From contig CAYOXC010000001.1 in NCBI GenBank assembly GCA_964407865.1, positions 109,642 through 173,641 of the forward strand: a stretch of 64,000 nucleotides of DNA, written 5' to 3'. The notes under the pieces are model-generated. The model made no database searches, had not been told where the DNA came from, and was given only the letters and a program-made list of their open reading frames with translations. Position numbers and translations under genes: made by a program. Shown piece by piece: positions 39,991 through 40,491 of this stretch. The stretch comes from an uncultured Gammaproteobacteria bacterium (GTDB lineage: Bacteria; Patescibacteriota; Patescibacteriia; Magasanikbacterales; GWA2-37-8). Positions within the stretch are counted from its first letter, which is position 1. The number at the start of each line of letters is the position of its first letter.

Positions 39991-39999
39991 GTGCTATAA
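39991..39999 (+). promoter_or_regulatory. Extended -10-like element (TGCTATAAT), followed by a ~150-nt structured leader, upstream of the zinc-ribbon gene.
   Basis: TGnTATAAT match. Downstream are palindromes such as ACCTGCCTGCCGATAGGTAGGCCTACCTG. Confidence 0.35.
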
Positions 40000-40158
40000 T
40001 ATTTATCGTAATTTTGGGGTACCTGCCTGCCGATAGGTAGGCCTACCTGTAGAAAAGGGTAGGGCGCTATTGCGTGGTTCCCAAAGAAGCCCGTCATTGG
40101 CGGGGGTCGATTAAACAAAAGTCTCAAATAACATTTTGGGAATAAAGCAATTAGCGTT

Positions 40159-40491
40159 ATGGTATACAACAACGATCGACAAATGTATGATGTCGATCTA
40201 ACTTGCGACCGCTGTGGAGGTCATATCTCCCAGTTACCGTTTCAGCCTTCTGGAGACCGTAAGGTCTACTGCAACGATTGCAACCGTTCATATTGGCAGG
40301 ATAAGCGCGCACATGGTGGCGGCGGCGGAGGATTCCGCGGCGGAATGAATCGCGGTCCACGTCAGATGTTTCAGGTGGATGTTAATTGTTCAGAGTGCGG
40401 CAAGCACATTGATCAATTACCGTTTGAACCAAAAGGCGACAAAGCTATTCTCTGCACAGATTGCCTTAGGGCAAAAAGAGAAGCGGCTTAA
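40159..40491 (+). CDS. Small protein built from two tandem CxxC...CxxC zinc-ribbon modules joined by a Gly-rich linker.
   Basis: YDVDLTCDRCGGHISQLPFQPSGDRKVYCNDCNRS and FQVDVNCSECGKHIDQLPFEPKGDKAILCTDCLRA are internal repeats joined by GGGGGGFRGG. Confidence 0.6.
   Translation: MVYNNDRQMYDVDLTCDRCGGHISQLPFQPSGDRKVYCNDCNRSYWQDKRAHGGGGGGFRGGMNRGPRQMFQVDVNCSECGKHIDQLPFEPKGDKAILCTDCLRAKREAA

Follow-up and report, generated by a model that had tools for sequence, protein, structure and literature searches.

The described systems closest to the RNA leader reported here are the autoregulatory leaders of RNA-binding proteins, such as those of L20, S15 and the thrS operator. Like the leader found in the 64-kb stretch of DNA that we analysed (the window), these are structured 5' UTRs that serve a single gene or operon, conserve unpaired nucleotides for recognition, are restricted to certain lineages and have alternative or pseudoknotted folds beside the initiation region, the last of which are predicted in our case. 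On the other hand, the protein encoded in the window is not known as a ribosomal protein or as an RNA-binding protein, mimicry of rRNA or tRNA could not be shown, and no Rfam leader family matches. The resemblance to the 3' end of 16S rRNA (AAGUCG...GGGGAACC) that we presumed for the leader is not supported, as a covariance model of the leader (R1, see below) had no match on the plus strand of the E. coli rrsH 16S gene. The preQ1-II and SAM-II riboswitches are, like the leader, small and have an A-rich strand, and the leader may also share their H-type pseudoknot and their control close to the start codon; they differ in that the gene context of the leader suggests no ligand, that its stems are conserved in sequence and do not covary, and that their Rfam models do not match. 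Finally, the cspA-type 5' UTR thermosensor is likewise a long leader (about 150 nt); the protein is small and probably abundant in both cases, and alternative folds act on translation, as we propose for the leader here. It is found, however, in other organisms and before another protein, its model RF01766 does not match at the leader, and it differs from the leader in the invariant single-stranded GGUCG of the latter. By analogy, the leader may act in the manner of the autoregulated mRNAs of RNA-binding proteins, or else as small pseudoknot riboswitches do whose expression platform is translational. None of the catalogued RNA families includes it.

For the encoded protein, two small proteins of Methanosarcina mazei with the same domain, A00184 and A01980, have been purified and found to be zinc-bound by ICP-MS (PMC12704099). 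Our literature searches for the leader motif or the domain returned only this zinc-binding paper and no description of the motif. Judged by the HMM scores, the M. mazei proteins and the window protein are members of the same domain family (PF23477/TIGR04272). Compared with the archaeal members, the window protein is a bacterial two-module form with an RQM[FY]xV preface, a Gly/Arg linker and x18 spacing.

The zinc-finger gene is monocistronic and has its own promoter and its own terminator (Table 1). The promoter matches the consensus at 10 of 12 positions and includes the TG dinucleotide, and the extended -10 element proposed in an earlier, sequence-only reading of the region is indeed present. 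Among the relatives, TTGACA with at most one mismatch and with correct spacing is found in 87 of 98 leaders, and A1, the first conserved segment, begins 8-14 nt past the -10. The same reading had named a strong terminator, which exists, although it lies just outside the interval to which it had been assigned. It is the only terminator-like site on the plus strand near the gene, with none between promoter and ORF. Neither does the leader contain the terminator hairpin with U-tract of a transcription attenuator: P2 runs into GGUCGAUUAA, and there is no U-run.

Table 1. Positions of promoter, leader elements, protein modules and terminator at the zinc-finger locus of the window.
Feature	Position	Strand	Remarks
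Promoter	39973-40000	+	-35 TTGATT 39973-39978; 16-nt spacer; extended -10 TGcTATAAT 39992-40000
5' leader with conserved RNA motif	40007-40158	+	start site about 40007, inferred; about 152 nt to ATG
A1, UUUUGGGGUACC	40012-40023	+	consensus (U)UGGGYAAC; extreme 5' end of transcript; 5' strand of P1
Two GC-rich hairpins	40025-40042, 40042-40063	+	inserted in apical loop of P1; lineage-specific expansion
GCGCUAUUGC	40064-40073	+	predicted local 4-bp hairpin (fold I) or paired with 40147-40157 (fold II)
A2, GGUUCCCAAA	40076-40085	+	consensus GUUCCCAA; predicted partner A1 (P1) or A4 (long-range)
P2	40090-40104	+	variable GC-rich hairpin CCCGUC-AUU-GGCGGG
GGUCGAUUAA	40105-40114	+	conserved best in the family; largely unpaired by prediction
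P3 hairpin	40122-40143	+	A3' UCUCAAA 40122-40128; loop UAACAU; A4 UUUGGGAAU 40135-40143
Pre-AUG segment GCAAUUAGCGU	40147-40157	+	predicted to be sequestered in fold II
ORF, 110 aa	40159-40491	+	ATG at 40159
Module 1 (aa 7-45)	40177-40293	+
Gly/Arg linker (aa 50-67)			HGGGGGGFRGGMNRGPR; joins the modules
Module 2 (aa 68-106)	40360-40476	+
Intrinsic terminator	40503-40543	+	14-bp stem 40503-40533 with 7 GC pairs, then T-run

In the window, the majority of the predicted genes have short leaders or none at all and lack a Shine-Dalgarno sequence, and a long leader is exceptional. The sequence suggests that leaderless or very-short-leader mRNAs are the norm in this organism. Several genes of the window have a TATAAT only about 8-20 nt before the ATG (e.g. 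38150-38174 and 35550-35579). The product of the gene upstream of the zinc-finger gene (38172-39968) has a P-loop domain like that of the TrwB/VirD4 coupling proteins (PF10412, E = 5e-9) and a long low-complexity tail rich in K, E and Q. The order HIT - TrwB-like - zinc-finger - mnmA - alaS is common to many Magasanikbacteria; among 80 loci of relatives, the TrwB-like gene is found upstream in 29 and mnmA downstream in 54. ARAGORN found no tRNA in the 64-kb window.

By its profile scores, the window protein belongs to a known family. Both Pfam PF23477 (zf_Tbcl_2; 79.3 bits, cutoff 27) and NCBIfam TIGR04272 (CxxC-x17-CxxC domain; 78.5 bits, cutoff 36) match it in two stretches, and a profile search of 1.84 billion representatives returned 4262 clusters (50% identity) at E <= 1e-3. 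Thus, the profile search that had been recommended as a check gives the protein a family with thousands of relatives. It does not bear out the proposed resemblance to YacG, which is absent from the listed Pfam and NCBIfam matches; other named zinc-ribbon families, like all families outside PF23477, scored below their cutoffs. The protein does consist of two tandem modules with QLPFxPxGD in each and a Gly/Arg linker between them, as had been read, while the Cys spacing needs to be corrected from x19 to CxxC-x18-CxxC in both modules. This x18 spacer is shared by 258 of the 262 modules of relatives. The repeat of about 40 aa can be written as RQM[FY]xV[DN]LxCxxCGxxIxQLPFxPxGDxPVYCxxCxxxxR, and the four cysteines of each module (C16, C19, C38 and C41 in the first, C77, C80, C99 and C102 in the second) are predicted to be able to chelate one zinc. 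In 49 homologs, seven of the eight cysteines and both PFxP motifs are invariant, and C102 is conserved in at least 90%.

In an AlphaFold2 model (pLDDT 72.8), the first CxxC lies in a beta-hairpin, a helix starts at the second CxxC, and the linker is disordered; a module modelled at this confidence would be treble-clef-like rather than a classical zinc ribbon. A Foldseek comparison of the model with the PDB gave no significant neighbour (best E = 0.6), and a PDB sequence search with the window protein gave no match. Many members of the family are longer, with 200-420 aa and 3-6 tandem PF23477 modules separated by R/G/D-rich linkers, and in these long members we found no co-occurring Pfam domain, RNA-binding domains included, besides the tandem modules themselves. 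Nucleic-acid binding by the protein is a reasonable guess because of the RGG-type linkers. RNA binding in particular is putative, given a pI of only 8.1, the lack of a significant structural neighbour and the lack of a co-occurring RNA-binding domain.

Next, we asked how far the leader is conserved. A genome scan with the protein resulted in 80 loci, almost all of them in MAGs of Magasanikbacteria or other Patescibacteria, and when the 260 nt upstream of each ORF were compared, nearly all loci showed one and the same architecture. The covariance model R1, built from 27 short versions of the leader, matched once per locus, on the plus strand and directly 5' of the ORF, at 75 of the 80 genome loci and in the window; no further copy was found in the 64 kb. 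An exact-pattern scan of metagenome contigs (TCTCAAANNNCATTTTGGGAAY), which takes no account of the gene, returned 83 stretches. A zinc-finger ORF follows 15-52 nt downstream in 58 of them, five or six more have the same element cut by the contig end or obscured in ORF calling, and about 19 others, which stay below 24 bits with R1, match by chance. In summary, about 64 metagenome loci carry the leader, and we have 122 distinct leader sequences from Magasanikbacteria and relatives (more than 100 uncultured Patescibacteria). It follows from both scans that all instances of the full motif with enough downstream sequence precede the zinc-finger gene.

Conservation of the leader is far beyond chance. 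It is found across species, on one strand and at a fixed position before one gene, as is expected of a cis-regulatory leader. The suggestion of the sequence-only reading that this could be a cis-regulatory RNA is supported: the leader is conserved together with its ORF in the relatives, it is strand-specific and structured, and neither a poorly conserved leader nor a protein confined to close relatives was found. The Rfam scan that had been proposed for the leader gave no match to Rfam 15 at 40003-40158 even at E <= 10. Nor were there matches at gathering score anywhere in the 64-kb window, and the leaders of 11 canonical relatives gave none either. The leader is real and strongly conserved, a cis-regulatory RNA that is apparently not yet catalogued.

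The distant two-module homologs (46-50% identity: L171, L173, L175, L016, L060-63 and L075) are without P1, P3 or A4. GGTCG is retained in them, always after an A-run and either adjacent to a hairpin or within its loop. The boundary of the leader distribution is marked by L176 (1000-1467), a single-module homolog whose N-terminal region is RGG-rich; all leader elements are missing there, and the gene has a Shine-Dalgarno sequence of the conventional kind (AAAGGGGGUGA).

Some side observations concern the annotation of these loci. The public calls of the closest homologs, P0001 (141 aa, L169 257-682) and P0002 (136 aa, L170 603-1013), begin inside the leader; their N-terminal extensions are probably miscalls, probably because of the missing Shine-Dalgarno sequence. 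In L002, L007, L009, L010 and about 25 more loci, TPA MAGs titled "uncultured Gammaproteobacteria" carry a locus and synteny of the Patescibacteria type, and these titles look like taxonomic mislabels. At a distance of about 1.6 kb from the zinc-finger gene, one Magasanikbacteria MAG has a sub-threshold match to the cspA thermoregulator (L056 89-451, minus strand; 37.5 bits, gathering score 78, E = 2.8e-6).

As far as can be read from the aligned leaders, the conserved core consists of four short AU-rich segments (A1, A2, A3' and A4) and GGUCG. The GC-rich palindromes that had first drawn attention to the leader are there in the window; they are not part of this core, being absent or different in the closest relatives. 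Two hairpins of other sequence are found in the P1 loop of L169 and none in L164, L167 and L170 (81-86% identical proteins), and across the family the P1 loop varies between 4 and 102 nt. The window variant of A1, UUGGGGUAC, occurs in 9 other leaders. P2 seems to be optional, because the distance from A2 to GGUCG ranges from 1 to 67 nt in the family. The invariant element GGUCGAUU, on the other hand, is present in 117 of the 122 distinct leaders. GGTCG was found within -110 to -20 in 117 of the 122, the other five being one base off, whereas permuted 5-mers occur in 1-3 of 122; the family consensus at this place is GGUCG(A/U)UU(U)AA, followed by an AU-rich stretch. Downstream of it, the P3 loop is 4-7 nt long and usually reads nAACAU, and the consensus of A4 is UUUGGGAAC. 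The end of A4 is separated from the ATG by a median of 17 nt (interquartile range 15-17), in an A/C-rich spacer without a Shine-Dalgarno sequence. In two lineages, represented by L041 and L049, an additional stable hairpin (e.g. CCCCGAUAAUUCGCCUAGCGAAUUCCUGGGG) lies between A4 and the ATG, and A4 is shifted to about -55 to -61.

Three further elements were considered and discarded. A copy of UUUGGAAC in codons 3-5 (F-G-T) is not kept as a pairing partner, as its synonymous sites vary freely (e.g. TTT GGT ACT, TTC GGA ACC). An upstream small ORF would have its frame broken by P2 and P1-loop insertions of arbitrary length. An extension of P1 past its C-G closing pair appeared inconsistent across the leaders, by reading and not by a count.

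We wanted to know which of the possible helices are supported. The plus strand of the window leader folds with -58 kcal/mol (z = -4.6), and none of 200 shuffles was as stable; for the minus strand z is -1.8. P1 (A1:A2) has 8 bp with one bulged nucleotide, P3 (A3':A4) has 7 bp, and A2 could also pair with A4, to which it is perfectly complementary (GUUCCCAAA/UUUGGGAAC). As the leader segments hardly vary, there is little covariation. When 96 distinct P1 arms were aligned without gaps on sequence anchors, 91.8% of the cells were paired, shuffles reached the same value, there was essentially no covariation, and at one A-U pair the change from A to U was uncompensated in 15 leaders. The covariation of helix 1 in the CM alignment was dismissed, as the local CM probably puts P2 hairpins in the place of P1, with large inserts. 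For P3, 92.5% of the cells are paired compared with at most 67% in slid controls, with modest exchanges (UG/CG/UA and CG/UG/UA), and at one position the commonest pair is U-G, which is possible on the plus strand only.

The competing helix A2:A4 was selected by an unguided RNAalifold run, and partition functions for 103 leaders favour it in 71, and P1 with P3 in 32. In the window, the values are -62.1 kcal/mol for the fold with A2:A4 (fold II) and -57.0 kcal/mol for that with P1 enforced (fold I). A4 is kept in leaders without the 5' arm of P3, and A1, A2 and A4 are altered jointly in L017 (AGGAAAC / GUUUCC / UUUGGAAAC) and in L043, where each is one pair shorter. Moreover, A2:A4 is lengthened by at least 3 bp in 17 of 103 leaders compared with 4.2 +- 1.7 in partner shuffles (0 of 1000 reach 17), a count that, like our other shuffle statistics, is inflated by relatedness among the sequences. 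The extensions differ between lineages (AUAU/AUAU, GUAC/GUAU, UUUGUC/GAUAAA) and are independent in sequence despite the relatedness. In the sublineage of the window, A2:A4 continues past a 3x3 internal loop into a helix of GCGCUAUUGC with GCAAUUAGCGU; this extension has 10 bp, is accompanied by compensatory changes in L170 (UAGC/GCUA) and L164 (GCGCUUU/AAAGCGU), and buries positions -12 to -2. A helix in L175, GAGAUGGAAAA/UUUUUUCCAUCUC, reaches to within 1 nt of the AUG, and its loop begins with GGUCG. Taken together, support from compensatory substitutions is modest for P3 and nil for P1, and for A2:A4 it comes from the lineage-specific extensions and a few joint changes.

Each of the G-type segments (A1, A4) can pair with each of the C-type segments (A2, A3'), and such a four-way constraint would explain why the sequences of the segments are frozen. 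Their order possibly permits an H-type pseudoknot of A1:A3' and A2:A4 as a further candidate. The two-fold architecture of the leader is reasonably supported, and the model of a switch between the folds rests on thermodynamic prediction.

We consider it rather probable that the leader is a conserved cis-regulatory RNA in which two mutually exclusive folds set translation, perhaps with feedback from the protein product. In fold I, the 5'-terminal P1 would cap and protect the 5' end, and P3 would stand about 17 nt before the AUG, leaving the A-rich initiation region open. In a genome in which most genes lack a Shine-Dalgarno sequence, initiation presumably depends on such an open A-rich start region. 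In fold II, the long-range A2:A4 helix would close a large domain, the base of which extends in the direction of the start region or covers it. In most lineages, the end of fold II lies about 17 nt short of the AUG, so that any blocking of the start site would be indirect there. Helices of other sequence that join the GGUCG domain to the pre-AUG nucleotides have arisen in further lineages, as in L175, and this supports translational coupling. The balance of the folds would thus set translation and possibly, as P1 caps the 5' end, mRNA stability as well. A factor that recognises the single-stranded GGUCGAUU may shift this balance, as an invariant and apparently unpaired element needs a specific partner. 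The encoded protein itself would be the most likely factor, acting in a negative feedback. It is our first choice because the element is tied to one gene, whose product combines an RGG-like linker with two zinc modules; nevertheless, taken by itself, this feedback comes somewhat short of an even chance. While conservation, gene exclusivity, strand specificity, complementarity and compensatory extensions are observed, the direction of the regulation and the identity of its trigger are what we infer from them.

Potentially, the leader could be a riboswitch, with GGUCGAUU and the junctions forming a pocket for a small molecule or metal, possibly by means of an A1:A3' and A2:A4 pseudoknot, and with the ligand selecting the fold. 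A zinc ligand would fit the gene product, unpaired nucleotides are strongly conserved in primary sequence, the peripheral hairpins vary in length as they do in many aptamers, two alternative folds are predicted, and the order of the four segments, as we read it, would allow the pseudoknot. It would have to be a new class, since no known Rfam riboswitch matches. However, the motif accompanies one gene only, no gene for transport or biosynthesis points to a ligand, the stems are conserved in sequence instead of covarying, and what the distant homologs keep (GGUCG and a hairpin) is too little for a typical aptamer, so that we regard a riboswitch as unlikely. Just as improbable, in our opinion, is a leader that works without any factor, be it an RNA thermometer or a stabilising 5' hairpin combined with a translation enhancer in a highly expressed mRNA. 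The near-consensus promoter, the start of P1 within a few nt of the 5' end, the two folds about 5 kcal/mol apart and the unstructured A/C-rich spacer ahead of the AUG would all agree with it. Yet an invariant unpaired GGUCGAUU is difficult to account for if no specific partner exists, what RNA thermometers usually conserve is base pairing with the initiation region and not primary sequence, and the model of the cspA thermoregulator does not match the leader.

The repeated TTGGGAAC/GTTCCCAA words might also be read as DNA, namely as transcription-factor sites just downstream of the promoter: the inverted repeat of A1 and A2 adjoins the promoter, and A4 is a third copy. We find such an operator highly unlikely because the spacing of the half-sites varies between 4 and 102 nt, and because the G-U wobble pairs and the strand asymmetry of the fold stability point to RNA; the lineage-specific complementary extensions, furthermore, reach the AUG region. 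Still less can be said for an independent sRNA that merely lies upstream of the ORF, which the sequence-only reading had offered as an option. The region is stable and structured and has its own promoter, but there is no internal terminator before the ORF, A4 keeps its near-constant distance to the ATG, and the motif was never found away from the zinc-finger gene; an sRNA in its own right is thus extremely unlikely. Cutting across these readings, we also entertain, tentatively and as the less probable outcome, that the leader represents either a ligand- or metal-sensing RNA of a new class or the cognate RNA site of RNA-binding treble-clef zinc fingers whose family had not been recognised before. 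If the latter holds, the two modules of the protein would read the single-stranded GGUCG and elements of the UGGG type.

Organisms of the Candidate Phyla Radiation (CPR) have tiny genomes and few recognisable regulators, and to our knowledge their regulatory RNAs are almost unexplored. A near-invariant leader of 150 nt that is maintained across a phylum-level lineage, amid genes with short leaders, marks a gene for which dosage clearly matters. With about 120 distinct sequences, the motif is defined well enough to be submitted as a new RNA family. If it senses a ligand or is the cognate site of the zinc fingers, it would be among the first dedicated riboregulators described in CPR/Patescibacteria. 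PF23477/TIGR04272 is a very large zinc-binding domain family without known function. Binding of the protein to its own leader, if it occurs, would provide a defined RNA ligand with which the role of the family could be discovered; failing this, the motif is a candidate sensor RNA of a new type. Should the cognate-site reading be true, it would give a first function and a first RNA target to a family of 4262 clusters at 50% identity.
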